A DNA stretch of 64,000 bases from Betaproteobacteria bacterium (GCA_016868035.1 VGID01000007.1:5302-69301); one strand, 5' to 3'. Positions 29,773 to 47,082 are shown, counted from the first letter of the stretch. Made by a program: numbers and translations. The notes: a model not told the origin generated them from the letters alone.

Positions 29773-30627
29773 CTAAGCGCGCAACGTGCGTTCCGCGGCC
29801 TGCACCGTATTGGCTAGCAGCATCGCCACCGTCATCGGTCCGACTCCGCCGGGCACCGGCGTGATCCACCCCGCGACCTCGCGCACCGGGGCGAAATCCA
29901 CGTCTCCCGTGATGCCTTTGCCCTCCACGCGGTTGATGCCGACGTCGATCACCGCAGCCCCCACCTTCACCATATCCGCGGTGATCAGCCGCGGACGCCC
30001 GGTCGCAGCCACCAGGATGTCGGCCCGCCGCGTATGCTGTCCGAGGTCCGGAGTGCGGCTGTGGCACACGGTGACGGTCGCGCCGCGAGCCATCAGCATG
30101 AGCGCCATCGGCTTGCCGACGATCGCGCTGCGCCCGACCACGACGGCTTCACGGCCGTCGATCGAGATGCCCGCGTGGTCGAGCATCGCAACGACTCCGC
30201 GCGGCGTGCACGGCTCGAAGACCGGGCGCCCGGAGACGAGAGCGCCCAGGTTGACCCAGCTCAACCCGTCTACGTCCTTCTCCGGGGCGATCGCTTTTGC
30301 CACCAGCTCCGGGTCGAGGTGCGCCGGCAGCGGAAGCTGCACGAGGATGCCATGCACCCGTGGATCGCGGTTGAGCTTGTCGAGGGTGGCGAGCAGCGTT
30401 TCCGGCGTCGCGCCCGCATCCAGCAGGTGCTCCTCGTTATGGACGCCGACCTCGTTGCAGGCCCGCATCTTGTTGCGGACATAGATCCTGGATGCCGGGT
30501 TGTCTCCCACCAGCACCGCGGCGAGGCCCGGTCGCACGTTCGAGCGCCCGAGGCTCGCCGTTCGCTCCTTCAGGCGGCCATAGGTGTCGCGGGCAAGCGC
30601 CGCGCCGTCGATCACGTGGGCAGGCAT
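29773..30627 (-). CDS. folD: Methylene-THF dehydrogenase/methenyl-THF cyclohydrolase
   Basis: YVRNK, GILVQLPLP, KDVDG, PCTP, GRS.IVGKP, TPVPGGVGPMT. Confidence 0.96.
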   Translation of the reverse strand: MPAHVIDGAALARDTYGRLKERTASLGRSNVRPGLAAVLVGDNPASRIYVRNKMRACNEVGVHNEEHLLDAGATPETLLATLDKLNRDPRVHGILVQLPLPAHLDPELVAKAIAPEKDVDGLSWVNLGALVSGRPVFEPCTPRGVVAMLDHAGISIDGREAVVVGRSAIVGKPMALMLMARGATVTVCHSRTPDLGQHTRRADILVAATGRPRLITADMVKVGAAVIDVGINRVEGKGITGDVDFAPVREVAGWITPVPGGVGPMTVAMLLANTVQAAERTLRA

Positions 30628-30885
30628 CGATCAGCCGTTGGTACTGTGCGAGGATCGCGCCTCGGAGAGCGCTTTTCTTGTCAGCATGCTGTGCGGCCTT
30701 GTTGCATCGTGGCGCGAGCGCGATTATTGCACGGGCACGCTGGAACTGTCATTCGATTCGCCCGCATCCGGACTCGTGATGGCCTTCCGGGCAGGCATGC
30801 GAACGTGAAGTTGGCGCGCCCTGCCAACTTGCGTAAAATTTACCATTTCTTCGCAACGATTCTCCGGATCGGGTGAAGTCCTCCG

Positions 30886-31377
30886 ATGGCTCCGAAACGC
30901 GTGTCGCTATGGGATAAGGAACGTCGCGAGCGCTACCTTGCGGAAAGCGACGACGCCCGGGCTCGTGCGAACGCACGCCACGACGGCGAGCATACCGCGC
31001 GGGATCTGCCCCGCGTCTGGCAAGGCCTGACGCGCGACGAAAGATCCGTCATGGAATACCTTTTGCTCGTGGGCAGCCCCACCGTCGTGGCGCTTCACGA
31101 TGAAGGCCTGCTCGACGGGCTGGTCGCCAAAGGGCTGCTTCGGAGGCCCCCCGGTGTCGGAACGCTGTTCATGAGTCACTACGAGACCACCTACGATGTG
31201 CCGGCTGCGGTGTGGCAATCCATGAATGACGGCCGGAAGCGCTATTTGCCCTACGCCGGCGCGCAGCTCGAGGCGCAACGCCGGCAAGCACGCGAGCGTC
31301 TGCACGCAAAGATCCTAGTGCTGGAGCCCTCGAGCGGGCCGGCGCGCCGCTCCAGCCGGAAAAAACGGCACGCCTGA
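30886..31377 (+). CDS. Hypothetical protein (possible winged-helix)
   Basis: 163-aa ORF whose stop overlaps the next start (TGATG); LTRDERSVM...GLVAKGLL helix pattern. Confidence 0.65.
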   Translation: MAPKRVSLWDKERRERYLAESDDARARANARHDGEHTARDLPRVWQGLTRDERSVMEYLLLVGSPTVVALHDEGLLDGLVAKGLLRRPPGVGTLFMSHYETTYDVPAAVWQSMNDGRKRYLPYAGAQLEAQRRQARERLHAKILVLEPSSGPARRSSRKKRHA

Positions 31378-32576
31378 TGAGCGTTTCCACGATCCCGGGT
31401 CCCGAAACAATAGCAACACTGCTTCTTTGCGGGCGATTCGGCCCGACGCGCGACGGAATCAAGCTGTTGTCGCCGTCCGAATATCACGATCTGGCGCAAT
31501 GGCTTGATACCCACCGTCTCGCTTTCGGCGATCTCATCAAGCCGGACGCGAGACCGATTCTCCAGGCCTATGCGGGCCGCGGCTCGGGGCGGGAACGCCT
31601 GCTTGCTCTCCTGAAGCGGACCGACGAGCTGGTGCTCGCGCTCGAGGGGTGGTCGCAGATGGGAATCTGGGTCGTGGCCCAGACCGACCCGCAGTATCCG
31701 CGGCGCTTGCGCCAGCGGTTGAAGCGCGCGGCCCTGCCGCTGCTGTTCGGCGCGAGCTCGCGGTCGTTGCTCGACGGCGGAGGCGTCTGCATCGTCGGTT
31801 CCCGCGACAGCCCCGAGGCAGCACTTCAGTTCGCGCAGGCCATCGGAGGGCGGTGCGCCCGCGAAGGCATGACCGTGGTTTCGAGCGACATGCGCGGCGT
31901 GGACCGCGAGACCGTGAATGCGGCGCTCGATGAGGGCGGAAAGGCGATTTGCGTGCTCTCGGGCTGCCTGGAGAAGGCGATCACCGCGAAGCGGCACCGC
32001 TCCACGCTCGCCGCGAACGCCCTCGCCATGGTGACGCCGTTCTCTCCCGACACCCGTTTCAAGGCAGCGAACGCCATACGTGTGAACAAATACCAGTACG
32101 CCCTTTCGGATGTCGCCATCGTCGTCGAGACGCGCGAAAAAGGGGGCGTCTGGCTGGGTGCCGAGGAAAACCGCCACAAGGGCTGGGTGCCGGCCTTCAT
32201 CCGCACCGGAGAGACCATGTCCCCGAGCAACCACGCCGCGCTTCACCTGGGCCTGCTCCCGATCACGCTCCAGGATGTCGAGCGCTCCGAGAGTCTGCGC
32301 GACTTCTTCGTCACGCACGGCCTGTCGGCCTGGAGCGCGGGCACCGAGGCGAAGCAACCCTGCGCGCCCTCCTCCAGACCGGGGCCGTCCGTGGACTTGT
32401 ACTCGATCTTCGTGACCGAATTGCGGACGGTGGTCGCGGCCGCGCCGCGCTCCGAGACCGAGATCGCCGAGCATTTCAAGATCGAACGCACCCAGGCGCG
32501 CGAGTGGCTGGCCCGCGCACTCGCGAACGGCGTCGTGCGGAAAGCCGATGACGCGAATCGCTACATGGCGCCCTAG
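31377..32576 (+). CDS. DprA/Smf (SLOG)-like protein with C-terminal HTH
   Basis: D.QYPRRL, IVGSR, RGVD, NKYQYALSD, VVE..EKGG. Confidence 0.82.
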   Translation: MSVSTIPGPETIATLLLCGRFGPTRDGIKLLSPSEYHDLAQWLDTHRLAFGDLIKPDARPILQAYAGRGSGRERLLALLKRTDELVLALEGWSQMGIWVVAQTDPQYPRRLRQRLKRAALPLLFGASSRSLLDGGGVCIVGSRDSPEAALQFAQAIGGRCAREGMTVVSSDMRGVDRETVNAALDEGGKAICVLSGCLEKAITAKRHRSTLAANALAMVTPFSPDTRFKAANAIRVNKYQYALSDVAIVVETREKGGVWLGAEENRHKGWVPAFIRTGETMSPSNHAALHLGLLPITLQDVERSESLRDFFVTHGLSAWSAGTEAKQPCAPSSRPGPSVDLYSIFVTELRTVVAAAPRSETEIAEHFKIERTQAREWLARALANGVVRKADDANRYMAP

Positions 32577-32695
32577 CAGCCTGCCGGATTTGATTCCGAC
32601 CGGATGCGAACAGCAAAATCGCCGGCGGATTCCGAATTCACTCAGGCGGTCTTGCATAAAGGAGCATGTCGGCCTCAAGTCCGGCAAACTCCTGG
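32573..32695. mobile_element. ~123-bp MITE-like element (family A), right end degenerate
   Basis: CTAGCAGCCTGCCGGATTTGA ... TCAAGTCCGGCAAACTCCTGG; its CTAG contains the dprA-like stop codon. Confidence 0.6.
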
Positions 32696-32704
32696 CGGGA
32701 AGCG

Positions 32705-34603
32705 TCAGGCGCTCCCGGACATCGTTACCGTCGGCCCGTCGGCGGCGAGGTTGCACGCGTTGACGAAAATCTCCTGGAACTCGGGCCGGGTCGCGAGCGC
32801 GACATGCTCGATCTGGCGCGCAATCGTCTCGGCCCGGCGCCTTTCCGTCTCGGACAATAGCGCCATCTGTGCGCCGAGATGGGCGGCGTTCCCAACGTAG
32901 CGGATCCGGTCCAGCGGCAACGCAGGCAGCAGGCGGATTCGCACCGCGCTCTCGATGTTCACGTAGTTGCCGAACCCGCCCGCCAGGAGCAACTCGTCGA
33001 TGTCCTCGTCCGCAACGTTCATCAGCCTCTGCAGCATCAGGATGCCGGCGTAGATCGCCCCTTTCGCGAGCTGGAGCTGCCGGCAGTCGATCTGGGTCAG
33101 CACGATGTCCTCGGGCTTGCCAGCCTTCGCCGCGGGCACGAGGACGAAAGCGCGGCTGCCCTCGTGCGCGACGATCCGCTGGCGAATCAGCGGGGGCAGC
33201 GCCGCCAGGTCGTTATGGCGCAGCCGGCCCGCCGCGTTCAGCACCTTCGCGTCCAGCATCTTGGCCACCGCGTCGATTAGCCCGGACCCGCAGATGCCGA
33301 TCGCGGGCACCTCTCCGATGACCTGGCACTCGACGTCGTCGCCGATGCGGATGCGCTCGATCGCGCCGATCGCGCCCCGCATCCCGTGCTTGATCTGCCC
33401 GCCCTCAAAGGTCGGCCCCGCGGGCGCCGAGCAGGCCATCAGCTTGTCCTTCGATCCCATGACCACTTCGCCGTTGGTTCCGATGTCGACCAGCACCCGT
33501 ATCTTTTCGCTGGCGTACAGGCGCGTCGCGATGATCGCCGCCACCGTATCGGCACCGACGAATCCCGCGACGATGGGCAGAAAGCACACGCGCGCATGGG
33601 GCGTTTTCTTGAGCGGCAATGCGGAGGCGGGAACAACGATCGGATAGCGGGCTGTCGGAGCATAAGGCGCGAGACCGACATAGCTCGTGTCGATGCCGAG
33701 GAACATGTGGTGCATGCACGTATTGCCCACGATCACGATCTTGTAGATGCGCTCCGGCGCTATACGCGCCTTTGCGCAGGCTTCCTCGATGAAATCGTTG
33801 ATCGCGGTGAGAATGCGTCCGCGCAACGAGGCGAGTTTCTTCGCGTCGAATTGCGCGTAGGCGACGCGGGACATCAGGTCGCCTCCGAACACGGCCTGGG
33901 GATTGATGCCCCCCACCGTGGCCAAGGGCTCGCCAGTCGCGAGGTCGAGCAGGCTGCCGACGATACTCGTCGTTCCGATGTCGAAGGCCATGCCGTACAT
34001 GCGTGTGCCCTCGGAACCCGCATCGATCGCGATGATCCGCTTGTTGAACGTCGTGACCGTGAGCTGGCCGTTCCGGGAGCGCAGCGCCTCGGGCACCTTG
34101 CGCAGCACGTCGAGCGCGACCTCCGGATCCGTGCCGGGGGGGAGTTGCAGAAGAATTTCCTCGATATCCGAGGTGAGGTGGTTCTCGTCACTCGGTGCCG
34201 TAGCCACGATGATGTGCTGCTCGACCCCGCAATCGAGCGCTGCGCCGTCGAGGGCATCGGACTCGCCGGCGCCCAGGATCTTGTGCCCCGCCTCCCCCCG
34301 CAAAGACGCCGGCATGATGGCGCAGTCGGCGATCACGGCAGTCTGGCACGACAAGCGGAAGTTTTCGTGCACCGCGTCGTGCCCGAGCTGGATCGTGTCC
34401 TGCACCGTGGGCGGCGGAATATCGCCGCTCAACACCTTGACCCGGCAGCTCCGGCAGCGGCCGCGCCGGCCGCACGTGGCCGTGATGTCCACGCCGGCAT
34501 CGAGCGCGGCCTGCAGCATGGTGATCCCGGCGGCGACCTCGACGCTCCTCGACTCGCCGCGCTGGGCGCCGTCGACCAGTGTTACACGGAACGTCTTCGA
34601 CAT
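32705..34603 (-). CDS. ASKHA-type reductive activator of corrinoid proteins (RACo/DUF4445) with N-terminal 2Fe-2S domain
   Basis: CGRRGRCRSC..RLSC, DIGTTS, GFVGAD, DIGTNGE, AGPTFEG, GICGSG, QLAKGAI, AGGFG. Confidence 0.93.
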   Translation of the reverse strand: MSKTFRVTLVDGAQRGESRSVEVAAGITMLQAALDAGVDITATCGRRGRCRSCRVKVLSGDIPPPTVQDTIQLGHDAVHENFRLSCQTAVIADCAIMPASLRGEAGHKILGAGESDALDGAALDCGVEQHIIVATAPSDENHLTSDIEEILLQLPPGTDPEVALDVLRKVPEALRSRNGQLTVTTFNKRIIAIDAGSEGTRMYGMAFDIGTTSIVGSLLDLATGEPLATVGGINPQAVFGGDLMSRVAYAQFDAKKLASLRGRILTAINDFIEEACAKARIAPERIYKIVIVGNTCMHHMFLGIDTSYVGLAPYAPTARYPIVVPASALPLKKTPHARVCFLPIVAGFVGADTVAAIIATRLYASEKIRVLVDIGTNGEVVMGSKDKLMACSAPAGPTFEGGQIKHGMRGAIGAIERIRIGDDVECQVIGEVPAIGICGSGLIDAVAKMLDAKVLNAAGRLRHNDLAALPPLIRQRIVAHEGSRAFVLVPAAKAGKPEDIVLTQIDCRQLQLAKGAIYAGILMLQRLMNVADEDIDELLLAGGFGNYVNIESAVRIRLLPALPLDRIRYVGNAAHLGAQMALLSETERRRAETIARQIEHVALATRPEFQEIFVNACNLAADGPTVTMSGSA

Positions 34604-34657
34604 TAGGGTCGCCTCACGCCCGGCGGGAGCCCGGTACATCGCTTTGCGCCATGATCC

Positions 34658-35629
34658 TCAACGCCGGGAATACGCGATGTAGCGCATGGCGAAATCGTCC
34701 TTGCCGAGGAGCACGTCGGCGGCGAGCCGGAATTCGACGTACTGGATCGGCGGATTCATGATCGGGTCGATCATCAGCGTGTCGCATCCGGCCAGGATCG
34801 ACAGGATGATGAACGCATTGTTGATCACCTTGCGGTCGGGCAGCCCGAACGAGGTGTTGCTGTGGCCGCCGAAGATGTGCACTTCCGGGTACCGCGCGCG
34901 TATCTCCCGGACCGCGTCCAGGTAATGATTACCGTACTCCGATCCCGCGCCGACGGGAAACGCGAGCGGGTCGAGATAGCGGTCGCCCATCGGCACGTCG
35001 GCGGCGTCCATCAACTCCATGATCTGGCCGAGGTTTTCGACCCGCTGGGCCGCGTCCTGCGGCATGTTGTCGCGTCCGCTGGCGTTGCCGAACAGGAGCG
35101 CATTGTATTTCTTCGCCAGCCCGATCAGCACCTGGCGTCCGTCCTCGAGGTTCACCGAGTTGATCGCCGGGCGGCTCGTCGCCACGTCGTATACCTCCAG
35201 GCCGGCGATGATGGTATCCGGGTCCGAGGAATCGATGGACAGCGTGGTATCGGTCATCGACTGCACAACCGGCACGAGCCAGCGCATCCACTGGTGGCGC
35301 TCGTTCGGATCCACGGATATCTCGTCCACGCACAGATCGATGATGTTCACGCCGGCCTGCACCTGGGAGCGGATCAGCCAGGCGATGTAGTCCGTGTTCT
35401 TCGTTCGCAGCGCGTGCGCGATGTGGGGGATCTGGTACTTGCGCACCTCCGCGGGATCCTTCGGGAAGATGCTCGTGATGTCGAGTACCTGTGTGCCGCC
35501 ATCCGGTCCCGGGAAAGACACTCCGATCTTGCCGTCGCTGCGCACGACCCGGGGGCTGCTGGGCTTCAACCGCCGGGTGGAATTGAAGTTTTCTCCGATA
35601 ATATCCAGGATTTTTTCACTTGCTCCCAT
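34658..35629 (-). CDS. Pterin-binding methyl-THF:corrinoid methyltransferase (AcsE/MeTr-like)
   Basis: IIGENFN, LSIDS, INSV, YLDP, GGHSNTSFGLPDRKVIN. Confidence 0.88.
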   Translation of the reverse strand: MGASEKILDIIGENFNSTRRLKPSSPRVVRSDGKIGVSFPGPDGGTQVLDITSIFPKDPAEVRKYQIPHIAHALRTKNTDYIAWLIRSQVQAGVNIIDLCVDEISVDPNERHQWMRWLVPVVQSMTDTTLSIDSSDPDTIIAGLEVYDVATSRPAINSVNLEDGRQVLIGLAKKYNALLFGNASGRDNMPQDAAQRVENLGQIMELMDAADVPMGDRYLDPLAFPVGAGSEYGNHYLDAVREIRARYPEVHIFGGHSNTSFGLPDRKVINNAFIILSILAGCDTLMIDPIMNPPIQYVEFRLAADVLLGKDDFAMRYIAYSRR

Positions 35630-35726
35630 TACCTGCTCCGTCCTTTCGAAAAAAGTAACCTGCCTTTGCGACAACGAAGTCGCCGCCCGGTTGCGGCCGC
35701 CCGCGCGCCGGTGTTGCGTAACGCCG

Positions 35727-36503
35727 TCATGAGGCTTCCGCAGGCGTCGGGCGCAGTCCGTAGAGCCCCGAGCGCGACATCTTCGGTACCATGCCGCCGC
35801 TCTCCAGCAGGCGCACCGGAAGCTCGACGTCACGGAAGATGCCGAACAATGCGGGTTGCTCGAACAGAGACCAGTCGCATTTTCGGCCACCCACGCTGAA
35901 GCTGTATCCGGGCGCCATGCGGCGGGTGAGCACAAGCCCCTCGGGCCCGACGAGTTCGCCCAGATGCCGCAGCAGGCGCTTGGTCGCCTGCTCGACCGCC
36001 ATCCAGCCCACCGTCTCCAGAAACAACGACTCGAGCACCTGTTTGCTGGCCGAGAGGTTGCTGCCGACCTGGTCGAAACCCCCGCCGAGGGTCAGCACGA
36101 AAGCGATGATCTCGCGGCATCCGGAAAGATATCTGTCGAAAGCATCGCAGCGTACCCGTGTGCCGTCGACCAGCGTCAGCACACCGCCGGCGCAATCGGC
36201 GATGCCCACGCGCCGATAACGCGCATCCGCTGCGAGCATGCGGTTGGCCATGGTCGTGACCGTTTCGGCGGCGTTTCTCACGGCCGGCCGCACCCGGGCA
36301 AGGTCGGTATACCCCTGCAATCTGAGGATCTGCTCGACGCTCACCCTCAGGTCCTTCGGAGCGTAGGTTCCGCACGCGCCAGCCATGGAAGGTTCCGGCG
36401 CCCGCCGGCCAGACGCTTCCGGGGCGGTGCCCGACGCAGGCGGATCCACGGAACCCTTGGCAGCGGAAACCATCTTGCCGGAGCGCTCCTGCACTATGGA
36501 CAT
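35727..36503 (-). CDS. Stand-alone B12-dependent methionine synthase activation-domain protein
   Basis: AFVLTLG, RMAPGY..DWSLFEQ, LLESGGMVPKMSRSG; start uncertain. Confidence 0.75.
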   Translation of the reverse strand: MSIVQERSGKMVSAAKGSVDPPASGTAPEASGRRAPEPSMAGACGTYAPKDLRVSVEQILRLQGYTDLARVRPAVRNAAETVTTMANRMLAADARYRRVGIADCAGGVLTLVDGTRVRCDAFDRYLSGCREIIAFVLTLGGGFDQVGSNLSASKQVLESLFLETVGWMAVEQATKRLLRHLGELVGPEGLVLTRRMAPGYSFSVGGRKCDWSLFEQPALFGIFRDVELPVRLLESGGMVPKMSRSGLYGLRPTPAEAS

Positions 36504-36621
36504 CCTCGACGCCTCGTCGTTTTCGGGAGAGTATGTGCGAGTGGCGCACTGCAAGTCGAGCGCGAGCCGCCGGACCGGGCCGACGAGCTACCCGCATGAC
36601 AAAGCGATGCTTCGCGAGTGC

Positions 36622-37686
36622 TCACACGCCGTGGTGCGCCGGCTGGGCCATGGGGAGCTGCGGATCGCCCCGGCAAAACGGGCGGCGCCCGCCCAGCACA
36701 CCCGATTCCTTGACGATTTCCCCCAGGTATTGCTCCTGGCGCGGGGACATCACATGGATCCCGGAGACTCCCCGGGTCTCTTTGATCTGCTGCATCAGTT
36801 CCACGCACAGCTTGCGCCCTTCCGCCGCCGGATTCTGCGCCTGCTCCAGGCGCCGGACGCATTCTTCGGGGATGTGCACGCCCGGCACGTGCGATCGCAC
36901 CCAGCGCGCGGTGCGCGCCGATGGCAGCGCCCCGACCCCGACCAGGATGAACACCTTCTCGTGCAGGCCCATGTCGCACACCCGGTCCATGAAGCGCCGG
37001 AACAGCGGTATGTCGAAACAGTACTGGGTCTGGATGAACTGGGCGCCCGCCTCGACCTTCTTCTTGAGACGCAGCGGGCGGAACTCGTAGGGCGGGGAGA
37101 ACGGATTCTCGGCCGCGCCGAGAAAAACTTCCGGTCCCTTCGTGAGCGGCCGCCCGGACAGGAACCGCTTCTCGTCGCGCATGTAGCGGATCATCCGCAG
37201 CAGCGACACCGAGCCGAGATCGAACACGGGCTTGGCGCCCGGCTGGTCGCCGACCTGTACCCCGTCCCCGGTGAGGCACAGGATGCAACCGACTCCCATG
37301 GCCGCAGCGCCGAGGACATCGCCCTGCATCGCGATGCGGTTGCGGTCGCGGCACGACATCTGCATCACGGGCGAGTAGCCGGCGCGGGTGAGGAGCGCGC
37401 AGATGCTGACGGCCGACATGTGGACGTTGGCGCCGGAGCCATCGGTCGCGTTGATGGCATCGACCCACCCGTCGAACACGGCGGCGCGCCGGTAGACCTC
37501 GTCCGGATCGACGGAATCCGGCGGCGCAAGCTCGGCGGTGACCGCGAAATGACCGGCTCGCAGCACCCGTTCGAAGCGGCTGCGCGAGTAATGGCCGGCG
37601 GGTTTCTCGGGCGGAGTGTCGTGGTCGAAAGGACCGCTCGCGCCGCCGTTCGCGGAGAGCATCGCCGGTGGCGTTCCCGCGTACAC
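36622..37686 (-). CDS. metF: Methylenetetrahydrofolate reductase
   Basis: VTAELAPP, DAINATD, CRDRNRIA, LCLTGD, KKVEAGAQFIQTQ, GIHVM. Confidence 0.92.
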   Translation of the reverse strand: MYAGTPPAMLSANGGASGPFDHDTPPEKPAGHYSRSRFERVLRAGHFAVTAELAPPDSVDPDEVYRRAAVFDGWVDAINATDGSGANVHMSAVSICALLTRAGYSPVMQMSCRDRNRIAMQGDVLGAAAMGVGCILCLTGDGVQVGDQPGAKPVFDLGSVSLLRMIRYMRDEKRFLSGRPLTKGPEVFLGAAENPFSPPYEFRPLRLKKKVEAGAQFIQTQYCFDIPLFRRFMDRVCDMGLHEKVFILVGVGALPSARTARWVRSHVPGVHIPEECVRRLEQAQNPAAEGRKLCVELMQQIKETRGVSGIHVMSPRQEQYLGEIVKESGVLGGRRPFCRGDPQLPMAQPAHHGV

Positions 37687-37688
37687 GG

Positions 37689-38288: not shown

Positions 38289-40151
38289 TCAGGCTGCGAC
38301 CTCCGCCGCGCTCGTCACCAGCTGCTGGCATACCTCCACCGCCTCGGGGGCGTTGTCCGCATAGCCGTCGGCGCCCACTTCCTTGGCGAATTCCCGCGTC
38401 ACCGGCGCGCCTCCCACGATCACCGGGATCTTCAGCCCTTCCTGCTTGATCTTCTCGATGATCAGCTTCATGAACGGCATCGTGGTCGTGAGCAGCGCGG
38501 AGAGCCCGATCACGTCGGCATTCACCTGCTTCGCGGTCTCGATGATCTTCTCGGCCTTGGTGTTGACGCCGAGATCCACAACCTTGAACCCGGCCCCCTC
38601 CAGCATCATGCCGACGAGATTCTTGCCGATGTCGTGGAGATCGCCGAATACGGTGGCCATGACCACGGTTCCCTTGGGCTTGGATTTCCTCTGCGTCAGG
38701 ATCGGCTTCAGGACCTCGAGGCCGGCCTTCATCGCCTTCGCCGCCATGAGCATCTCGGGCACGAAGAACTCGCCCGCCGCGAACAAATCGCCGACCCGGC
38801 CCATCGGCGGGATCAACCCCTGGTCGAGTATGTCCTGGACCGGCTCGCCGGCCGCGAGGGCGTCCTTGACGAGCTGGGTGCAGCGGTTGCCGTCGAACTC
38901 CATGACGGAGTCGTAGATGTCCTGGTAAATCTGCTTGCGCCCGGCTCTTTGCTGGTCCTCTTCCAGCGACTTCACCCCCATCCCCATGAAGCCCTTTCCG
39001 CCCGCGGCCTCGGGCGCGATGCTGTCGGGTCCGCTGAACACCTGGCCGGCATAGGGCCGGTCCCCCTCCCGGAAGCGCTTCACCGCTTCGACGGCGATCC
39101 GCACGTGCTCCGCCGGTGTCTGGGCGCTGAAGCTGCAGAAATAGAGGAAGAACTTCTTGCCGTGCGGACCGCGGCTGCCGACCTCCATGTATTCGTGGAT
39201 GCGCTGCGTGATCTGCTCGGGCGTGCCTTTCTGCAGGATCAGGGTGCCCACGCCGAAGCTCAGCGCGCAGCCTTTCTTGTCCGCGTACGCGCGGGCGCGC
39301 TCGGTGCCGACGCGAAAGCAGTCCGGGTCCTGGATCTTGAGGTATTGCGGCGTCACTTCCAGCTTCGTGTCCCAGAACTTCTCGGCCTCCGCGGCGAAGG
39401 AATCGCCCCACCAGTTGTCGCAACGGATTCCCGGCCCGTTCCCGCACAGCTTGCGCAGCTTCATCAGGTACGGCACCGAGAATTCGTAGAGCATGTCCTC
39501 GGTGATGAAGGGCAGCGAGCCGACCGCGTCCTTGCCGTTGGCAATCGTCGCGTCGGGAAGAACCTTGAAATAGGCCTGGATGTAGGGTGCGAGCACCTCC
39601 TCGACGATGAAGTCCATCAGCTTGTGGACGAACTTCGGATTCTCCTGAATCGCGACCACCAGCTTTTCGAACTGCAGGAGCTGGGCCGCCAGGTTGATCG
39701 GCGCGCAATAGTGGATGTGGTGGGTGAATCCGCTCAGTTCCTTGCAGATCTGCAGCGCCTCGAGAACCCATGGCATGCGGCCGGCCTTGAACGGGTCGGG
39801 CGCCTTGAGCCGCGCGAGGTCCTTCTCGTCACGGATGACCGGATGGGTGTTGTCGAGCGCGGGATAGAGTTCGTCGAACCAGGCCATCTGCCCGCCGAGG
39901 GCCTCGGCCTCGACCGAATAGACGTCCCAGACGAGATCGGGGACATCGAGCCCGAATTCCTTCTGCACGCTCAGGTTGCCGCGCACGAACACCTCCGGGT
40001 CGCTGAAGAACTTGCGCCCGTTGATCCCGCGATGCTTCATGCAGAACTCGGCCATCTGCGTGGTGACGGGAATGAAATCCGCGTCGCCGCCGTCCATGAT
40101 GGTCTTGTACTGCCTCACGCCTTCGCTGAAATCGAACTCGTACCCGGACAT
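38289..40151 (-). CDS. Fusion of a UroD/MtaA-fold methyltransferase and a corrinoid-binding protein (CmuA-like architecture)
   Basis: N-terminal VEAEALG, PDP.KAGRMPWVLEA, TP.EH; C-terminal M.RVGDLF.AGEFFVPEM, GDLHDIGKNLV, GLSALLTTT, VGGA; GAGGAG RBS. Confidence 0.88.
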   Translation of the reverse strand: MSGYEFDFSEGVRQYKTIMDGGDADFIPVTTQMAEFCMKHRGINGRKFFSDPEVFVRGNLSVQKEFGLDVPDLVWDVYSVEAEALGGQMAWFDELYPALDNTHPVIRDEKDLARLKAPDPFKAGRMPWVLEALQICKELSGFTHHIHYCAPINLAAQLLQFEKLVVAIQENPKFVHKLMDFIVEEVLAPYIQAYFKVLPDATIANGKDAVGSLPFITEDMLYEFSVPYLMKLRKLCGNGPGIRCDNWWGDSFAAEAEKFWDTKLEVTPQYLKIQDPDCFRVGTERARAYADKKGCALSFGVGTLILQKGTPEQITQRIHEYMEVGSRGPHGKKFFLYFCSFSAQTPAEHVRIAVEAVKRFREGDRPYAGQVFSGPDSIAPEAAGGKGFMGMGVKSLEEDQQRAGRKQIYQDIYDSVMEFDGNRCTQLVKDALAAGEPVQDILDQGLIPPMGRVGDLFAAGEFFVPEMLMAAKAMKAGLEVLKPILTQRKSKPKGTVVMATVFGDLHDIGKNLVGMMLEGAGFKVVDLGVNTKAEKIIETAKQVNADVIGLSALLTTTMPFMKLIIEKIKQEGLKIPVIVGGAPVTREFAKEVGADGYADNAPEAVEVCQQLVTSAAEVAA

Positions 40152-40923
40152 CTCGACTCTCCTCACAGACATATACCCGGCCGTGCAAGCGCGGGCCGCA
40201 CGCGTGGCGGCGCGCCAGCTGGCATCGGAAAGTATGCGGTTACGGGAATGCAGGCTTTCGGCATGCACAGCCCTCTCGTCCCCAAAGGAACCGAACCAAG
40301 GAACGAAAGGGCTGGGACGGAGAACCGTCTTCGGAAAGCCCGTTAAGCGCGCTTTGTATCGGGATCGGGCCGGAAAATCACCTGACTTCCGGCGCGTCCA
40401 AGCCGCTTCGGCAACTGGAATCATAGGTTAGTGGATCGGCCTGGTTCCGTCAAGAGACCGGCGACACGCGGCCTCGAAGCGCGCGCGTGCCGCGACCGAA
40501 TTCACGGACTTCCCCGCATGGGCAGAATCGTCCGCCGCGCCACGCGGATCGACTTCCCAATTCCGTTCCTTGGCGCAATCGCGGACCCGTGAACGCGATC
40601 GCGGTGCGCCATCCTTGCCCCGGCCCGATAATACCCTTGACCGTGTCAGGGGTTGTTGCCTAGAATCCAATCACTCCCCAGGATCGCTGCCGCGTTTGCG
40701 GCATGTCCGGCGGAAGTTACGGGCTCTTCCAACGCGGCGCCGCCGCTCCAGCCCTGTTTCAAATCATTCCGTACGGATCGGGCCGTCCATTGGCTGCGTC
40801 GCGCGTGAGTCACCGCGCGGCACGAGCGTTGTAACGAGGCGAGATCGTGCCGGGCGAAAGAAAAATGCGTGATCGGCCGTGTGAGGGTGCCACGAGCATC
40901 AGGGACGGAAGCGTCGAGAAAGG

Positions 40924-40947
40924 GCGGTTGCAACCGTGCGGTTGCAA
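40924..40947. promoter_or_regulatory. Candidate operator upstream of phnC
   Basis: TTGCAACCG-TG-CGGTTGCAA palindrome; GCGGTTGCAA repeated at a 14-nt period. Confidence 0.4.
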
Positions 40948-40983
40948 GCACACCGAAAACAAGGCGCCGAGGAGGAGCCGTTG

Positions 40984-41808
40984 ATGTTACGCATCGAGGG
41001 GCTGACAAAGAAATTCGGCGAGCTCGTTGCCGTCGACAACCTGTCTTTCGAGGTGCCGACGGGACAGATGCTCGGGATTATCGGCCGCTCGGGCGCCGGC
41101 AAGTCCACGCTGCTCCGCATGATCAACCGGCTGGCCGACCCGACCAGCGGCCGCGTCCTGTGCGACGACGCTTTCGAACGCGAGGTCGACGTCTCCGCCC
41201 TCAAGGGGCGCCAGTTGACCTTCTGGCGACGGAAGTGCGCGATGGTGTTCCAGCAATTCAACCTGGTCGCTCGCCTCGATGTCCTGACGAATGTGCTGAT
41301 GGGACGCCTCAGCTATCAGCCGACCTATCGCTCGCTGCTGAAGATGTTCACGCCGCAGGAGCGCGCGCTCGCGGTCATGACGCTGGACCGGGTGGAAATG
41401 GTCCCTTTCATCCTGCAACGCGCGGACACGCTTTCGGGCGGCCAGCAGCAGCGCGTCGCCATTGCGCGCGCGCTGGTGCAGGAGCCGAGAATCCTGCTCG
41501 CAGACGAGCCGATCGCCTCGCTCGATCCCCGCAGCGCAGCGCGGGTCATGGACATACTGCGCAGCATCAACCGCGAAGACGGCATCACCGTGATCTGCAA
41601 TCTGCACACCATCGATACGGCGCGCACCTATTGCGACCGGCTCCTCGGGATGCGCACGGGCCGGATCGTGTTCGACGGCCTGCCCGCGGCACTGGACCGG
41701 GATCGCATCCAGGAAATCTATGGTCGGGAAGGCGACGAGGAGGTTGACGAGACCGTCACCTCGACGGCCCTGCCTGGCAGCCGGATCGCACGAGCCGGGA
41801 CGCGATAG
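40984..41808 (+). CDS. phnC: Phosphonate ABC transporter ATPase
   Basis: [44 protein letters not shown]. Confidence 0.92.
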
Positions 41809-41932
41809 CGCAAGCCGGGACCGGCCCAATCCGCACGCGCGAGGAGAGACGAACATGAGAACTTGAGAGCGATCGGGAAAGACGGCAGCGCAAGATGTGC
41901 AACGATCACCTGTAGCACAGACGCGAGGAGAA

Positions 41933-42883
41933 ATGACAATGAGACCTGCAAAGACATTGATGTTGGTCCTGGCCTTGGCGATGTTCGTCGGCGGCAGCCT
42001 GTTCGTCAGCGACAGTGCGACTGCCCAGACGGCGTCCGACTGGCGCAAGCAATTCCCGAAATTCCGCTACGGCGTGCAGGCTGTCGAGACACAGGTGGCG
42101 GCCATGACGCGCTACAAGGGATTCGGGGAATACATAAAGAGGAAGTTCGGCCTCGAGCTCGAGCTCTTCCTCTCCGCGGAATACGCGGGCGTCATCCAGG
42201 CGATCGGCGCCAAGCAGCTCGAGGTGATGGACATGGGAGCCGCAGGCTACGCTGCAGCCTGGATCGAAACCAAGGGCGCGGTCGAGCCTCTGGTCGTTCC
42301 CACGAATCCCGATGGCACGATCGGGTACTACGCGGTTGCATTCGTGCGCTCCGACAGCCCGTTCAAGAGCCTCGACGATCTGAAAGGCAAGGTCTGGGCC
42401 TGGGTGGAGCCGAACTCTTCGTCCGGCTACGTCTTTCCTCTGGTGGGCTTCCGCAGGATGGGGCTCGAGCCCGAAAAGCATTTCGGCAAGGTCGTCTTTT
42501 CCGGGGGACACGAGCAAAGCATCATCGGCGTGCTCGACAAGGCCTACGATGGCGCCATCACCTGGACCAACGATGTCGAGAAGCACACGCGGGGCGGTCT
42601 GCACATGATGTTGAGCCGCGGCGTGCTCAAGAAGGAGGACATCCGGATCATCTGGGTCTCCGATCTCATCCCCAACCCGGTAATCGCGATCCGCTCCGAT
42701 CTGCCGAAGGAGATGAAAGACGAACTGCGGAACATGTTCCTCAACCTGCACAAGGACGACCCGAAGGTGTTCCGCGAGGTCGTGCGGGGCGAGTCGCAGG
42801 GCTACCGCGTGGTCGAGCATAAGGTCTATCAGATCGCGGTCGACCTGCGCCAGCAGCTCGCCAAGGAACGCCGCAAGAAGTAA
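41933..42883 (+). CDS. phnD: Phosphonate ABC transporter substrate-binding protein
   Basis: Signal peptide, YAGVIQA, GYYA, NSSSGY..P, SGGHE, IPN. Confidence 0.88.
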   Translation: MTMRPAKTLMLVLALAMFVGGSLFVSDSATAQTASDWRKQFPKFRYGVQAVETQVAAMTRYKGFGEYIKRKFGLELELFLSAEYAGVIQAIGAKQLEVMDMGAAGYAAAWIETKGAVEPLVVPTNPDGTIGYYAVAFVRSDSPFKSLDDLKGKVWAWVEPNSSSGYVFPLVGFRRMGLEPEKHFGKVVFSGGHEQSIIGVLDKAYDGAITWTNDVEKHTRGGLHMMLSRGVLKKEDIRIIWVSDLIPNPVIAIRSDLPKEMKDELRNMFLNLHKDDPKVFREVVRGESQGYRVVEHKVYQIAVDLRQQLAKERRKK

Positions 42884-42908
42884 CGGGGCGAGCGGCGAGC
42901 AACCATCG

Positions 42909-42952
42909 CGGCAGGGCGCGCAGCGTCGACGGGTGACGCTCGCGCCCTGCCG
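42909..42952 (+). other. Stem-loop after phnD (mRNA stabiliser or attenuator)
   Basis: CGGCAGGGCGCG.AGCGTC ... GACGCT CGCGCCCTGCCG. Confidence 0.55.
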
Positions 42953-42965
42953 GGAGTAACGGTTT

Positions 42966-43841
42966 ATGCAGGCTGAGGCATCCAGCGCCCAGGTCAAGCG
43001 GTTCGAGGAGGAGTTCGCGCGCCTGCGCAAACAGCAGCGTCTCCAGCTGATCGGCTTTGCGATCGTCTTCCTCGTCGTATTCAAGTTCGCGGCCGATATC
43101 AGCAACTTCACGCCGCAACGGCTTGCCGCCGGCCTGCCGCGGATTGGCGAATACCTGAGCTTCACGCTGCCAGAGATCCGGCTCACGAGCCTGTTCGGCG
43201 ATGTCGCTTACTGGTATTACGGGTTTTTCCGCTGGCTGGGGCTCCTGTTCGACACCATTTTGATCGCGCTGATGGCGACCATCTTCGGCGCGATCGGCGG
43301 GTTCATTCTTTGTTTCGCGGCATCGCGCAACCTGGCTCCGCATTTCTGGGTGTATTTCGTTTTCCGGCGCCTTGCGGAAATCGCGCGCACCGTGCCGGAA
43401 ATCGTCTATGCCCTGATCTTCGTCGTCTCTTTCGGCATCGGCCCGTTCGCCGGCTTTCTTGCGCTCAGCGTGCACGCGACCGGCGCGCTCGGAAAACTGT
43501 TCGCCGAAGCGAACGAGAACCTCGATGAGCGCCAGCTCGAAGGGGTGCGGGCCACGGGGGGTAACTGGTTCGAGGTCATCCGGTTCGCGGTGCTGCCCCA
43601 GGTCCTGCCCAATTTCATTACCTACACGCTGTGGCGCCTGGAACTCAGCATCCGCTCCGCGGCCATCGTCGGATTCGTGGGCGCGGGCGGGATCGGACAG
43701 GAGCTCTATCACGCCATCAGCTTCAATTACTACGAGGACGTGAGCGCGATCGTGCTGATGATCATCCTCACCATCACCATGATCGATCTCATCTGCGAAA
43801 AGATACGGCATCGCATCATCGGCAAGGAGAGCCTCCATTGA
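42966..43841 (+). CDS. phnE: Phosphonate ABC transporter permease
   Basis: RTVPEIVYALIF..FGIGP.AG, LGKLFAE, R.AAIVGFVGAGGIG. Confidence 0.9.
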   Translation: MQAEASSAQVKRFEEEFARLRKQQRLQLIGFAIVFLVVFKFAADISNFTPQRLAAGLPRIGEYLSFTLPEIRLTSLFGDVAYWYYGFFRWLGLLFDTILIALMATIFGAIGGFILCFAASRNLAPHFWVYFVFRRLAEIARTVPEIVYALIFVVSFGIGPFAGFLALSVHATGALGKLFAEANENLDERQLEGVRATGGNWFEVIRFAVLPQVLPNFITYTLWRLELSIRSAAIVGFVGAGGIGQELYHAISFNYYEDVSAIVLMIILTITMIDLICEKIRHRIIGKESLH

Positions 43842-44758
43842 GCCTGAGCGCGGCTGCTATTGATACCGGGCAACTCTCGGTGCTGCGCGAGCGCCACCCG
43901 CGCGCTTTTTCGCTAACGCCGCGCGAGCGCGCGATCCGGCTCGCGCTGTTGCTCGGACTGCTCGCGTTCGTGCTGTTCTGTCTGTATCGCTTCGACGTCA
44001 CGCCGGCCCGGATCATGAACGGCATGGACCGGTTCGGCAAGATCGCGGGAGCTCTGTTTCCACCGACGGCGAGGGATGTCTTCTGGGACTTGTTCAAGGC
44101 GATGATGGAAAGCGTCGCCATGGCCTTTCTCGGCACGCTGATCGCCGCCATCATCGCCGTGCCGCTCGGGTTTCTCGGCGCGCAAAATGTCCTGCCGATC
44201 CGGCTCCTGCGCTTTCCGATCCGCCGCTCGTTCGACTTCCTGCGCGGGACGGACGCCCTCGTCTGGGCGCTCGTCTACGTGCGCGCCGTCGGGCTGGGTC
44301 CGCTCGCCGGAGTGCTCGCGATCGCGACCACGGACATCGGCATCTTCGCGAAGCTCTTCGCGGAAGCGATCGAGAATGTCGAGCGCAAGCAAGTCGAAGG
44401 CGTCCGCGCAGCCGGCGGCAGCGCGGTGAAGACGATGCGTTTCGGGATCCTCCCCCAGGTGCTTCCGATCATGCTGTCAAACGTGCTCTACATGTTCGAA
44501 TCCAACACCCGCTCCGCGACGATACTCGGGATCGTCGGGGCGGGCGGCATCGGCTTCGCATTGTCGGACCGCATCCGTGCCCACCTTTGGGACGAGGTCG
44601 GATTCATCATCATCATGATCATCGTCGTCGTCGCGCTGATCGATTTTCTCTCGCACATGCTGCGCACCAAGGTGATCAAGGCCGGCACCAACCGCCCCCT
44701 GGTGCTGACCGAGGATGCGCCTACCTTCTCGGACGCCGATCGCGGAAAATCAAGGTAG
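43838..44758 (+). CDS. phnE: Phosphonate ABC transporter permease (second copy)
   Basis: VGLGPLAG, KLFAEAIEN, FESNTRSATILGIVGAGGIG; TTG start overlapping the previous stop. Confidence 0.9.
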   Translation: MSLSAAAIDTGQLSVLRERHPRAFSLTPRERAIRLALLLGLLAFVLFCLYRFDVTPARIMNGMDRFGKIAGALFPPTARDVFWDLFKAMMESVAMAFLGTLIAAIIAVPLGFLGAQNVLPIRLLRFPIRRSFDFLRGTDALVWALVYVRAVGLGPLAGVLAIATTDIGIFAKLFAEAIENVERKQVEGVRAAGGSAVKTMRFGILPQVLPIMLSNVLYMFESNTRSATILGIVGAGGIGFALSDRIRAHLWDEVGFIIIMIIVVVALIDFLSHMLRTKVIKAGTNRPLVLTEDAPTFSDADRGKSR

Positions 44759-44792
44759 ACTAAAGGAATCCTGCGCGGGGAAGGAAACGAAC

Positions 44793-45455
44793 GTGGCCGT
44801 ACCCAGGGAATTCGCGCTGTTCCGCCGCACGAAGGCGCTCGAGAACGAGATCGACGAGTTTCTCGACAAGCTCTCGGAAGGCGCGCTCTCGTTCCGGATC
44901 GCCGTGCAGACCTATCTCGCGCACGGCCGGACCCCGGCGTTCGAGGAAAAGCTCGCCCAGGTCAACGCGCTGGAGAGCAGCGCCGACCACCTGCGGCGCT
45001 CGATCGAGATCAAGCTCTATTCGCAGACGCTCATCCCCGAATCACGCGGGGACGTGCTCGGGCTTCTCGAGACGCTGGACTCGGTCATGAATCTGATGGA
45101 AGGCGCCCTGTGGGCGTTCTCGATCGAAACTCCGGAGATTCCCGAGCCGTTCCGGGCCGACTACAACAACTTGACCGACATGACGGTCCATTGCGTGGAT
45201 GCGCTGACGCAGAGCGCGCGCGCCTTCTTCCGCAATATCGAGGCCGTTGCCGATCACAACCACAAGGTCATGTTCTTCGAGAAGGAAGCCGACAAGATCA
45301 GCACCAAGTTGAAGCGCGCGGTCTTCGAATCGAGCCTCGCCTTGCCGGCCAAGATGCAGCTGCGCTATTTCGTCGAGAAGATCGACGACATTGCCGACCG
45401 CGCCGAGGACGTGGCGGACCGGCTGGCGATCTACACCATCAAGCGCACGGTATGA
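44793..45455 (+). CDS. DUF47 (PhoU-like) phosphate transport regulator
   Basis: LES.AD.LRR, IPESRGD, EKEAD, IADRAEDVADRL; precedes PiT. Confidence 0.88.
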   Translation: MAVPREFALFRRTKALENEIDEFLDKLSEGALSFRIAVQTYLAHGRTPAFEEKLAQVNALESSADHLRRSIEIKLYSQTLIPESRGDVLGLLETLDSVMNLMEGALWAFSIETPEIPEPFRADYNNLTDMTVHCVDALTQSARAFFRNIEAVADHNHKVMFFEKEADKISTKLKRAVFESSLALPAKMQLRYFVEKIDDIADRAEDVADRLAIYTIKRTV

Positions 45456-45470
45456 CCGGGCACCGCGCCC

Positions 45471-46562
45471 ATGGACATATCGGCCTTCATCTTCCTCAGC
45501 AGCGGACTGTTTTTCGGCTGGGCCCTCGGCGCCAATAATCTCGCCAACGTATTCGGCACGGCCGTCGGCACGCGCATGATCCGTTTCACCACGGCCGCGG
45601 CGATCGGCGCCGTATTCGTGGTGCTCGGCGCAGTCATCAGCGGCAGCGGCACTTCCGAGACGGTGGGAAAACTGGGTTCGATCGACGCCCCCGCCGGCGC
45701 CTTCATGGCCGCGCTGGCGGCGGCCGTCGCGGTGTTCATGATGACGCGCGCCGGCTTGCCGGTCTCGACCACCGCGGCGATCGTCGGGGCGGTCGTCGGC
45801 TGGAACCTGTTCAGCGAAACCTGGCCTGATCTCGATTCACTGAGGAGCATCCTGATCGGACTCGTCGTGGGCCCGGTGCTGGCCGCGGGATTCGCGATGG
45901 TTCTCTTCGTCGCCACCCGGGCGGCTCTGGCGGCGGCGAAGGTTCATATGGTGCGCCTCGACATGTACACCCGCCTGGGACTGATCGTGGCCGGCGCCTT
46001 GGGGGCCTACAGCCTGGGAGCGAGCAATGTCGCCAATGTCGTCGGCGTATTCATCGAGACCTCGCCCTTCACGCCGTTCACCATCGATGGCTTTCTGACC
46101 ATCACGCCGGCGCAGCAGCTGGCCGTGCTGGGCGGGCTGTCCATCGCAATCGGCGCCTGCACCTATTCCGGCAAGGTCATGCACACCGTGGGCGCGGGGC
46201 TGTTCACCCTTTCCCCGGTCGCTGCCTGGGTGGTGGTGATGGCGCACTCGATCGTGCTCATCCTGTTCGCATCGAGGAACCTCGAAGCGGTGCTCGCGGG
46301 CCTGGGCCTGCCGACGATCCCGCTGGTGCCGATCTCGAGTACGGAGGCCATCATCGGCGCCGTGATCGGTGTCGCGCTGGTCAAGGAAGCCCACAACATC
46401 CGTTGGTACGTGCTGGCGCGGATCACCGTGGGCTGGGTCATGACCCCGGTGATTGCCGCGGTCATCTGCTTCGTGGGCCTGTTCTTCCTGCAGAACGTGT
46501 TCAACCAGGAAGTCTACCTTCCGGCCGTCGGCGACGCGGTCGAGACGCACCAGCCCGGCTGA
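45471..46562 (+). CDS. Inorganic phosphate transporter, PiT/PHO4 family
   Basis: GANNLAN.FGT, GLPVSTT, GASNVANV, PISST. Confidence 0.9.
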   Translation: MDISAFIFLSSGLFFGWALGANNLANVFGTAVGTRMIRFTTAAAIGAVFVVLGAVISGSGTSETVGKLGSIDAPAGAFMAALAAAVAVFMMTRAGLPVSTTAAIVGAVVGWNLFSETWPDLDSLRSILIGLVVGPVLAAGFAMVLFVATRAALAAAKVHMVRLDMYTRLGLIVAGALGAYSLGASNVANVVGVFIETSPFTPFTIDGFLTITPAQQLAVLGGLSIAIGACTYSGKVMHTVGAGLFTLSPVAAWVVVMAHSIVLILFASRNLEAVLAGLGLPTIPLVPISSTEAIIGAVIGVALVKEAHNIRWYVLARITVGWVMTPVIAAVICFVGLFFLQNVFNQEVYLPAVGDAVETHQPG

Positions 46563-47079: not shown

Positions 47080-47082
47080 GCG

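Follow-up and report, generated by a model that had tools for sequence, protein, structure and literature searches.

Why would the genes of a corrinoid-dependent methyl-transfer system stand back to back with those of a phosphonate-type ATP-binding cassette (ABC) importer? This question is raised by a stretch of 64,000 nucleotides from a Betaproteobacteria bacterium (G000:C7:5302-69301, hereafter the window), which belongs to a metagenome-assembled genome (MAG) of 3.9 Mb, 127 contigs and 98.3% completeness. On one strand lies a set of genes for methyl transfer (hereafter the B12 module), headed by the gene of a protein in which a methyltransferase domain is fused to a corrinoid-binding domain (hereafter the fusion protein), and including a pterin-binding methyltransferase (MeTr) and a reductive activase of corrinoid proteins (RACo). 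Diverging from it on the other strand are phnC, phnD and two phnE genes, followed by DUF47 and PiT genes. The original prediction, made from the sequence of this locus, was that a methylated phosphorus compound is imported and then demethylated, the phosphate transporter PiT taking care of the released phosphate. We propose here that the corrinoid methyl-transfer module works with a special clade of PhnCDEE-type importers, probably on a methylated phosphorus compound, a reading to which we give a probability of about 0.55.

Corrinoid methyl transfer to tetrahydrofolate (THF) is already known in aerobes, and clusters with MtaA-like proteins are already known outside methanogens. B12-dependent demethylation was long regarded as a trait of anaerobes; CmuA and CmuB form the chloromethane:THF methyl-transfer system of methylotrophic Alphaproteobacteria. 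B12-dependent demethylation was recently shown to matter in aerobes, for glycine betaine, where MtgBCD(E) is a cobalamin-dependent demethylase and split methionine synthase of aerobic marine bacteria (PMC12478193). Outside methanogens, the uncharacterised type 1 mlp clusters combine MtaA-like proteins with a corrinoid protein and a Ram/RACE activase (PMC10418091).

The fusion gene is linked to phnCDEE across genomes

A scan of one genome per species yielded 27 loci encoding a fusion protein 71-83% identical to that of the window, all of them in MAGs of Proteobacteria. Their hosts are Alpha-, Beta- and Gammaproteobacteria and, according to record titles, the samples were of hydrothermal, marine, soil and wastewater origin. 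Neighbours were counted within 10 kb of the fusion gene, by tblastn with a coverage of at least 50% and E up to 1e-10. The complete set of phnC, phnD and both phnE genes was found at 16 of the 27 loci, and at least one of these genes at 19 (phnC at 17, phnD at 16, each phnE at 17); in L008, L009 and L024, a partial transporter set is located at the edge of the contig or locus. At 14 of the 27 loci the transporter genes begin immediately downstream of the fusion gene and in its orientation, the gap being estimated at -3 to 330 nt. RACo was present at 13 loci and MeTr at 12, and four loci (L006, L009, L022, L026) display the one-strand order phnE, activation-domain-like gene, MeTr, RACo. The adjacency of the fusion gene and phnCDEE, which the original prediction had left as a possible accident, is therefore not due to chance: clusters homologous to that of the window are linked to phn genes, often in operonic fashion.

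Five genomes whose fusion locus has no importer were searched for one elsewhere. Three of them hold an orthologue of the PhnD clade (approximately 500 bits), and in two of these three it is on the same contig as the fusion gene, 16 and about 30 kb away. The picture is different for the phosphate transporter: apart from the window, only 3 of the 27 fusion loci (L005, L013, L019) also carry DUF47 and PiT, and the pairing with PiT does not hold as a general feature.

In genome G001 the two gene sets are part of a longer island. Its transporter part comprises phnCDEE, a reductase, a LysR regulator, a Rieske oxygenase and an EamA protein, and the rest consists of a 2-hydroxyacid dehydrogenase, a PhnY-like aldehyde dehydrogenase, a PhnA-like hydrolase, the activation-domain-like gene, MeTr, RACo, a DprA-like pair and the fusion gene. 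The best model for the aldehyde dehydrogenase is PhnY, with a score below cut-off, and the PhnA-like hydrolase is below cut-off as well. The 2-hydroxyacid dehydrogenase, PhnY-like and PhnA-like genes also immediately precede the activation-domain-like gene, MeTr and RACo at L003:1446-5150 and L004:1583-6533, where all three score below equivalog cut-offs; this gene set may represent a variant route for a hydroxyalkylphosphonate. The L003 dehydrogenase was considered as a phosphite dehydrogenase (PtxD) and rejected, because models of phosphoglycerate dehydrogenase and glyoxylate reductase gave 198-185 bits versus about 118 bits for PtxD. HAD hydrolases are encoded at four fusion loci, and EamA proteins at many related loci.

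A further gene, for a GTPase of the CobW/metallochaperone type, follows the fusion gene in both L003 (L003:11904-13634) and L004; the end of its frame matches phage integrase, and two genes may be involved.

An MtaA-fold methyltransferase carrying its own corrinoid domain

Gene identities were assigned by Pfam and NCBIfam scans of the window proteins. Of the 620 amino acids (aa) of the fusion protein, about residues 1-365 make up an MtaA/URO-D-fold domain, and about residues 405-615 a B12 cap together with a B12-binding domain. Its URO-D domain passes the PF01208 cut-off (90.5 bits versus 23.9) and stays below that of the MtaA/CmuA subfamily model TIGR01463 (48.4 bits versus 235.4). The B12 part matches PF02607 (E 7e-22) and PF02310 (E 6e-30), as well as corrinoid proteins of the PDB (E 1e-51), and the cobalamin motif DxHxxG is present as D-L-H-D-I-G at residue 504. 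A predicted model of residues 1-400, based on an alignment of 30 sequences, reached a predicted local distance difference test score (pLDDT) of 91.6. The closest solved fold was MtaA of Methanosarcina mazei (4ay7, TM-scores 0.70 and 0.82), followed by uroporphyrinogen decarboxylases, with MetE far behind. Across 25 of 25 fusions, H147-x-C149, E170, C278, C295 and C339 are invariant, and the Cys at 236 and 244 vary. In zinc alkyltransferases of the MtaA/MetE type, the metal is bound by H-x-C and either a distal Cys or a Glu and a Cys; judging from residue conservation, a metal site in the methyltransferase domain of the fusion is possible. The family is small (816 representatives at E up to 0.001 among 1.84 billion), and the close relatives observed all come from MAGs or metagenomes and bear generic names only. 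A Thiodictyon plasmid with split homologues (H10) was also inspected for clues to the substrate, and its neighbouring genes were uninformative.

The remaining domains fit the succession predicted for the pathway, in which a methyl group passes from the substrate to the corrinoid, and from there through MeTr to THF. RACo passes the cut-offs of its four Pfam domains (2Fe-2S Fer2, linker, middle, and ASKHA ATPase/C-terminal) and scores 409 bits on the NCBIfam AcsV model, below its cut-off of 800; MeTr likewise scores 190 bits on NF005719, below the cut-off of 259. The 275-aa protein encoded next to MeTr has no Pfam or NCBIfam match of its own, even at E 1 for Pfam, and an orthologue matches the MetH activation domain PF02965 below cut-off (E 0.0045). 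With a profile built from nine orthologues, PDB entry 1j6r, a MetH activation domain occurring as a protein of its own, was matched at E 2.9e-9 (positions 45-254 of 255). At profile level the label given in the original prediction is therefore right, and we describe the protein as MetH-activation-domain-like, with putative binding of S-adenosylmethionine. A homologue is common to 12 loci, and in related loci the gene is directly upstream of MeTr and RACo.

An importer clade with a predicted phosphonate-type head pocket

PhnCDE transporters belong to the PhnT family (TC 3.A.1.9), which includes E. coli PhnD (for 2-aminoethylphosphonate), PtxB, HtxB, marine PhnD and GpxB (for glycerol phosphates), and whose members take up phosphate esters besides phosphonates (PMC12718374). 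The window importer resembles this family in that PhnC and both PhnE pass the equivalog cut-offs for phosphonate transporters (TIGR02315 and TIGR01097, Table 1). The PhnC proteins of 17 related loci share 59-67% identity with that of the window. PhnD passes the broader phosphate/phosphite/phosphonate model TIGR01098 (193 bits, cut-off 112) and differs from typical members in falling below the PhnD equivalog TIGR03431 (237 bits, cut-off 261). In a quick maximum-likelihood tree it is separate from the two other PhnD-like genes of the genome.

The residues of E. coli PhnD that bind the phosph(on)ate head (Tyr, Tyr, Ser-x-Ser, His) are kept in 16 of 16 aligned clade members. The remainder of the pocket is different. 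In E. coli PhnD, the amine of 2-aminoethylphosphonate is held by Asp205 and Glu177 (PMC12718374). All 16 aligned clade members have Pro at the Asp205 position, where PtxB has a steric Tyr, and the column of Glu177 aligns ambiguously. The clade has an invariant Thr-Trp-Thr motif that E. coli PhnD lacks. A phosphorus head group of the ligand is supported by the PhnC and PhnE equivalog scores, by the conserved head-binding residues, and by neighbours such as PhnA-like, PhnY-like, HAD, DUF47/PiT and nucleotidyltransferase genes.

The same importer clade has two other kinds of methyl-handling partner

The importer was then taken as the starting point, with a sample of 16 metagenome loci whose PhnD is 51-85% identical to that of L016. 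A MobA-like nucleotidyltransferase of 250 aa adjoins phnCDEE in 8 of them, and in 6 of the 8 (L039, L040, L043, L046, L050, L052) phnCDEE is flanked as well by a MetE-like protein of 365 aa (for example L052:12641-14459). The other 8 loci are on contigs of at most 4.6 kb or are cut at phnC. The MetE-like protein retains an H-x-C, E, PDCG pattern, which we take to be the zinc site of MetE, and scores 113 bits on the best methionine synthase model, below the cut-off of 406. Neither gene is found in the 27 B12 loci or in the genome of the window. The quick maximum-likelihood tree places the MetE-linked PhnDs within the B12-linked set. The nucleotidyltransferase/MetE-like pair looks like a conserved, uncharacterised module, in which the imported compound may be the methyl donor for a thiol.

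A third kind of partner is a Rieske oxygenase, found beside the importer clade in L005, L023, L100, L101 and L102, and its PDR-type reductase, found in L005, L024, L100 and L101. Together with a LysR regulator and an EamA membrane protein, they form a recurring unit next to phnCDEE (for example L005:16911-20616). The closest solved relatives of the oxygenase are phthalate-family enzymes of uncertain substrate, from which no firm substrate could be called, and the distant ones include the O-/N-demethylases DdmC and NdmA.

A single importer clade thus has as partners three kinds of methyl-handling enzymes, B12-dependent, MetE-like and Rieske. Our chief reason for regarding its ligand as a methyl compound is that this one clade travels with three unrelated kinds of enzymes able to take or move methyl groups.

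Proposed pathway and candidate substrates

In the pathway that we propose, the importer would take up a small anion that carries a methyl group and whose head group resembles phosphonate or phosphate. The MtaA/URO-D-fold domain would move the methyl group to Co(I) on the B12 domain of the same protein, and the MeTr-like enzyme would hand it to THF. The resulting CH3-THF could be oxidised via MetF/MetV and FolD, or used by MetH. RACo and the MetH-activation-domain-like protein would rescue the corrinoid once oxidised to Co(II). The product might be phosphate, handled by PiT where present, or else an organic phosph(on)ate that would be exported by EamA proteins or degraded. The domain identities, the fold and the conserved, often operonic linkage are observed; what class of substrate is used, which way the methyl group moves and what becomes of the product are inferred.

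From chemical reasoning and general knowledge, our best guess is that phosphate or a phosphonate, esterified with an O-methyl group, is the substrate. Such an ester is favoured by the preference of URO-D-type MT1 enzymes for compounds whose leaving group is a good one, be it halide, thiolate or phenolate. By the same kind of reasoning it is favoured by the MobA-like partner, because nucleotidylation would make methyl phosphate a much better alkylating agent for the MetE-like enzyme, and by the Rieske partner, because the distant solved relatives of that oxygenase include O-/N-demethylases. The next option is an N-methyl or S-methyl phosph(on)ate, for instance, among N-methyl compounds, phosphocholine or trimethyl-2-aminoethylphosphonate.

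A wider proposal, which we put forward only tentatively and consider possible rather than probable, is that O-methyl phosph(on)ate esters occur naturally and widely as methyl donors, in lakes, soils, sediments and the sea. They would be imported by one PhnCDEE clade, and their methyl group harvested in three independent ways: attack by Co(I) in a CmuA-like B12 enzyme feeding THF, nucleotidylation followed by MetE-like transfer to homocysteine, and oxidative removal by a Rieske enzyme.

Evidence against the proposed pathway, and other explanations

Several observations weigh against a methyl-phosphorus pathway served by this importer. In the window, the B12 module and the importer are divergent and not co-transcribed. 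The window PhnD shares only 34-42% identity with its counterparts at the other loci, themselves 52-97% identical to one another; in the quick maximum-likelihood tree it is inside a 37-row clade with an SH-aLRT of 99, on a long deep branch whose placement is unsure. A second deep-branching relative of PhnD, in L055, has as neighbours a gamma-glutamyltranspeptidase and an aminotransferase, and no methyltransferase. No close PhnD was found in G002 and G005 (MAGs of 2.7 and 2.4 Mb), two of the five genomes searched for an importer away from the fusion locus. Since none of the 16 metagenome loci of the PhnD clade carries the fusion gene, MeTr or RACo, the importer clade is not dedicated to the B12 module. 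The His of the H-x-C motif is not kept across the wider family of stand-alone homologues of the methyltransferase domain. Among the matches of the PhnD family in the PDB are the arsenate/arsenite binders ArrX and AioX, and the window PhnD matches the putative selenate-binding model TIGR04553 at E 1.7e-16.

Two further points concern the metabolism of the host. MetF is the only methylenetetrahydrofolate reductase (MTHFR) match of the genome, and FolD is a single copy by tblastn; because they are sole copies, both are probably housekeeping enzymes and cannot count as dedicated pathway members. At the fusion loci they are rarely linked (MetF at 4 of 27, FolD at 1, and MetV at 3). Genes for carbon-phosphorus (C-P) cleavage do exist in the genome. 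The absence of phnG-M, phnX, phnA and phnYZ, which the original prediction stated for the window, is confirmed there. A search of the genome, 98.3% complete, gave no PhnJ and no PhnX above cut-off, yet contig C38 (G000:C38:10148-14201) carries in a row PhnA (537 bits), an HpnZ-like alcohol dehydrogenase and PhnY (843 bits), PhnA and PhnY being above curated cut-offs. From its gene content, this set looks suited to the breakdown of 2-hydroxyethylphosphonate. All in all, the original reading is upheld in part: the module-importer linkage and the domain logic stand, and the reading is weakened or left unsupported by the rarity of the PiT link, the single copies of MetF and FolD, the C-P cleavage genes of the genome and the divergence of the window PhnD.

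Some of these observations would suit two independent gene sets sharing a genomic island, phnCDEE-DUF47-PiT being devoted to ordinary phosphorus scavenging, and the B12 module acting on a membrane-permeant methyl halide or thioether. The divergent orientation, the atypical PhnD and the 16 loci with an importer and no B12 module all point that way, as does the CmuA-like architecture of the fusion protein. We nevertheless regard independence as quite unlikely, given that the importer follows the fusion gene on its strand at 14 of the 27 loci, that it lies between the fusion gene and MeTr/RACo in several loci, and that, in loci devoid of the B12 module, enzymes next to it handle methyl groups as well; CmuA is, moreover, 27% identical to the window fusion, over residues 203-616 only (E 9e-27, tblastn against annotated cmuA).

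The imported methyl compound might contain no phosphorus but be another tetrahedral oxyanion (methanesulfonate, methyl sulfate, a methylated selenium oxyanion or methylarsonate) and be demethylated by the B12 module all the same. ArrX, AioX and the selenate-binding model are in line with such ligands, MtaA-like enzymes with H-x-C typically act on methyl-sulfur or methyl-selenium compounds, and type 1 mlp clusters have been proposed to act in methyl-sulfur/selenium metabolism (PMC10418091). This explanation is unlikely in our view, as PhnC and PhnE exceed the phosphonate-transporter cut-offs, as the neighbours include PhnA-like, PhnY-like, HAD and DUF47/PiT proteins, and as no gene handling sulfite or selenium is among the annotated neighbour families. 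The presence of a MobA-like nucleotidyltransferase among the partner modules also speaks for phosphorus, as these enzymes act on phosphoryl or phosphonyl groups.

The methyl group could also flow in the reverse direction, as in MetH: CH3-THF made by MetF/MetV would pass its methyl through MeTr to the corrinoid, and the URO-D domain would methylate an imported acceptor, a nucleophile with or without phosphorus. The module does share the parts list of MetH (pterin-binding, B12 and activation domains, and a barrel with a candidate metal site), the alternative partner is MetE-like and MetE enzymes methylate a thiol, and MtgD of the aerobic Mtg system is reported to be bidirectional (PMC12478193). 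The genome however has a separate MetH-like locus, on contig C20, and there is no evident benefit in an ATP-costly import merely to methylate; the Rieske oxygenase with its PDR-type reductase, distantly related to the demethylases DdmC and NdmA, fits methyl removal. Reverse flow thus appears distinctly improbable. Finally, demethylation could concern methylphosphonate itself, Co(I) taking the methyl off phosphorus with release of phosphite. The importer is of the phosphonate type, the genome has no PhnJ, and methylphosphonate occurs in natural waters. This possibility is nonetheless extremely unlikely: no phosphite dehydrogenase is linked, the L003 dehydrogenase being far from PtxD, and from known redox potentials we reason that breaking the CH3-P bond to give P(III) and the equivalent of a methyl cation would be strongly uphill.

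Comparison with known systems

The closest parallel to the proposed methyl-phosphorus pathway is CmuAB. In both systems, one protein joins an MtaA-like methyltransferase to corrinoid-binding domains, a separate pterin-binding enzyme leads to THF, MTHFR and FolD are nearby, and the host is aerobic. Besides the low identity of CmuA given above, the window module differs in having RACo and a MetH-activation-domain-like protein, and in its link to an ABC importer, which would be needless for a gas such as chloromethane. With MtgBCD it shares B12-dependent demethylation to THF in aerobic Proteobacteria and separate corrinoid-binding and methyl-corrinoid:THF methyltransferase modules (PMC12478193). 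Its substrate enzyme is different, being of the MtaA/URO-D fold and fused to the corrinoid domain, no scanned protein of the cluster has an MttB-family match in Pfam or NCBIfam, and uptake relies on a PhnCDE-type transporter. The type 1 mlp clusters also combine MtaA-like methyltransferases, corrinoid proteins and reductive activases, but they are from anoxic habitats and have sulfur/selenium gene neighbours, and the word phosphonate is nowhere in the available text (PMC10418091). As for the MetE-like partner, it resembles the MesA-D core, or folate-independent, methionine synthases in being a short MetE catalytic-domain protein with the zinc motif (PMC7857596), and differs from them by its score, far below the methionine synthase cut-off (113 versus 406 bits), and by its pairing with a nucleotidyltransferase and an importer; the terms phosphonate, nucleotidyl and ABC transporter were not found in the available text of PMC7857596. 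The HIMB59 methyltransferases (PMC10734472) were considered too, and proved unrelated to the substrate question.

In a literature search that left subscription journals outside its scope, we found no paper on a corrinoid methyltransferase linked to a phosphonate-type importer or on the swapping of such partners, and none in which bacteria draw methyl groups from methyl phosphate. Should the substrate prove to be a methylated compound of phosphorus, the locus would reveal an unknown metabolite pool and a use of organophosphorus for carbon, energy or methyl groups, beyond phosphorus alone, and would explain some orphan phnCDE operons without C-P lyase. If O-methyl esters are in addition demethylated by the three routes, they would be a new substrate class for methylotrophy and a new link in the carbon-phosphorus cycle. 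Whatever the ligand, an importer clade that swaps B12-dependent, B12-independent and oxygenase partners offers a concrete handle for its identification.

Gene layout and neighbouring genes of the window

Coordinates are summarized in Table 1. All genes named in the original prediction were recovered at or near the positions it gave, by Pfam and NCBIfam or, for the activation-domain-like protein, by profile only, and the divergent region, announced as about 830 bp, measures 832 bp. The GC content of the window is about 65%, and the stretch occurs in lake water metagenomes.

Table 1. Features of the central part of the window, with positions counted from its first nucleotide.
Feature	Coordinates	Strand	Evidence
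folD, bifunctional methylene-THF dehydrogenase/cyclohydrolase	29773-30627	-	PF02882 E 5e-70, PF00763 E 2e-37
163-aa protein, no known family	30886-31377	+	no Pfam or NCBIfam match
DprA-like (Rossmann/SLOG) protein, weak C-terminal helix-turn-helix (HTH)	31377-32576	+	PF02481 E 8e-25, residues 93-269
RACo-type ATP-dependent reductive activase of corrinoid proteins	32705-34639	-	Fer2, RACo_linker, Raco_middle, RACo_C_ter above Pfam cut-offs
MeTr/AcsE-like pterin-binding methyl-corrinoid:THF methyltransferase	34658-35629 (open reading frame, ORF, to 35935)	-	PF00809 E 3.5e-18
MetH activation-domain-like stand-alone protein, 275 aa	35727-36554	-	orthologue profile vs PDB 1j6r
MetF (MTHFR), MetF/MetV type	36622-37688 (ORF to 37776)	-	PF02219 E 1e-29
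MetV-like (DUF5981, MTHFR C-terminal-type)	37689-38198	-	PF12225 E 5e-26
URO-D + B12-binding_2 + B12-binding fusion, substrate:corrinoid methyltransferase	38289-40151	-	PF01208, PF02607, PF02310
Divergent intergenic region, 832 bp	40152-40983	.	one sigma-70-like site
phnC, ATPase of phosphonate-type ABC importer	40984-41808, start ATG 40984	+	TIGR02315 316 bits vs cut-off 266
phnD-family substrate-binding protein	41897-42883	+	PF12974 E 9e-52
phnE permease 1	42966-43841	+	TIGR01097 268 bits vs cut-off 217
phnE permease 2, true start probably later than that of the ORF	43631-44758	+	TIGR01097 280 bits vs cut-off 217
DUF47 (PhoU-like)	44715-45455	+	PF01865 E 7e-25
PiT-family phosphate transporter	45471-46562	+	PF01384 E 2e-52

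Likely starts were assigned for two genes of the B12 module: that of MeTr is ATG 35629, with a GGAG-type site upstream, and that of MetF is GTG 37686, which abuts the stop of MetV. The single sigma-70-like site of the divergent spacer (TTGACC, 18 nt, TAGAAT, 40637-40666, + strand) is approximately 320 nt upstream of phnC. This position would imply a long phnC leader, with no counterpart in Rfam, since a scan of 28500-47500 gave no match at E up to 0.1. A conserved leader RNA such as a riboswitch was considered and dropped, given the gaps between the fusion gene and the transporter, which span about 0 to 330 nt across loci.

Between folD and RACo, two plus-strand genes absent from the original prediction were found (30886-32576), for the 163-aa protein and the DprA-like protein. 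The HTH-type matches at the C-terminus of the latter are weak (residues 353-399, E 8e-4 to 0.17). The DprA-like gene adjoins the fusion gene at 20 of the 27 loci, and a homologue of the 163-aa ORF is found at 15 of them (16 loci including the window, by gene-family clustering). The DprA-like protein is a candidate ligand-sensing regulator of the B12 module, with the 163-aa protein as its partner; to our knowledge, such a pair does not correspond to a described kind of regulator.

Upstream of folD, positions 21691-28538 of the window encode an OpuAC-permease fusion (a betaine-type ABC transporter), a class III aminotransferase and a 1176-aa oxidoreductase (Fer4_20 and Pyr_redox_2 domains). On the other side of the locus, an EgtB-like protein with DinB_2 and FGE-sulfatase domains is encoded at 55526-56830 (- strand), suggesting the presence of genes for ergothioneine synthesis.

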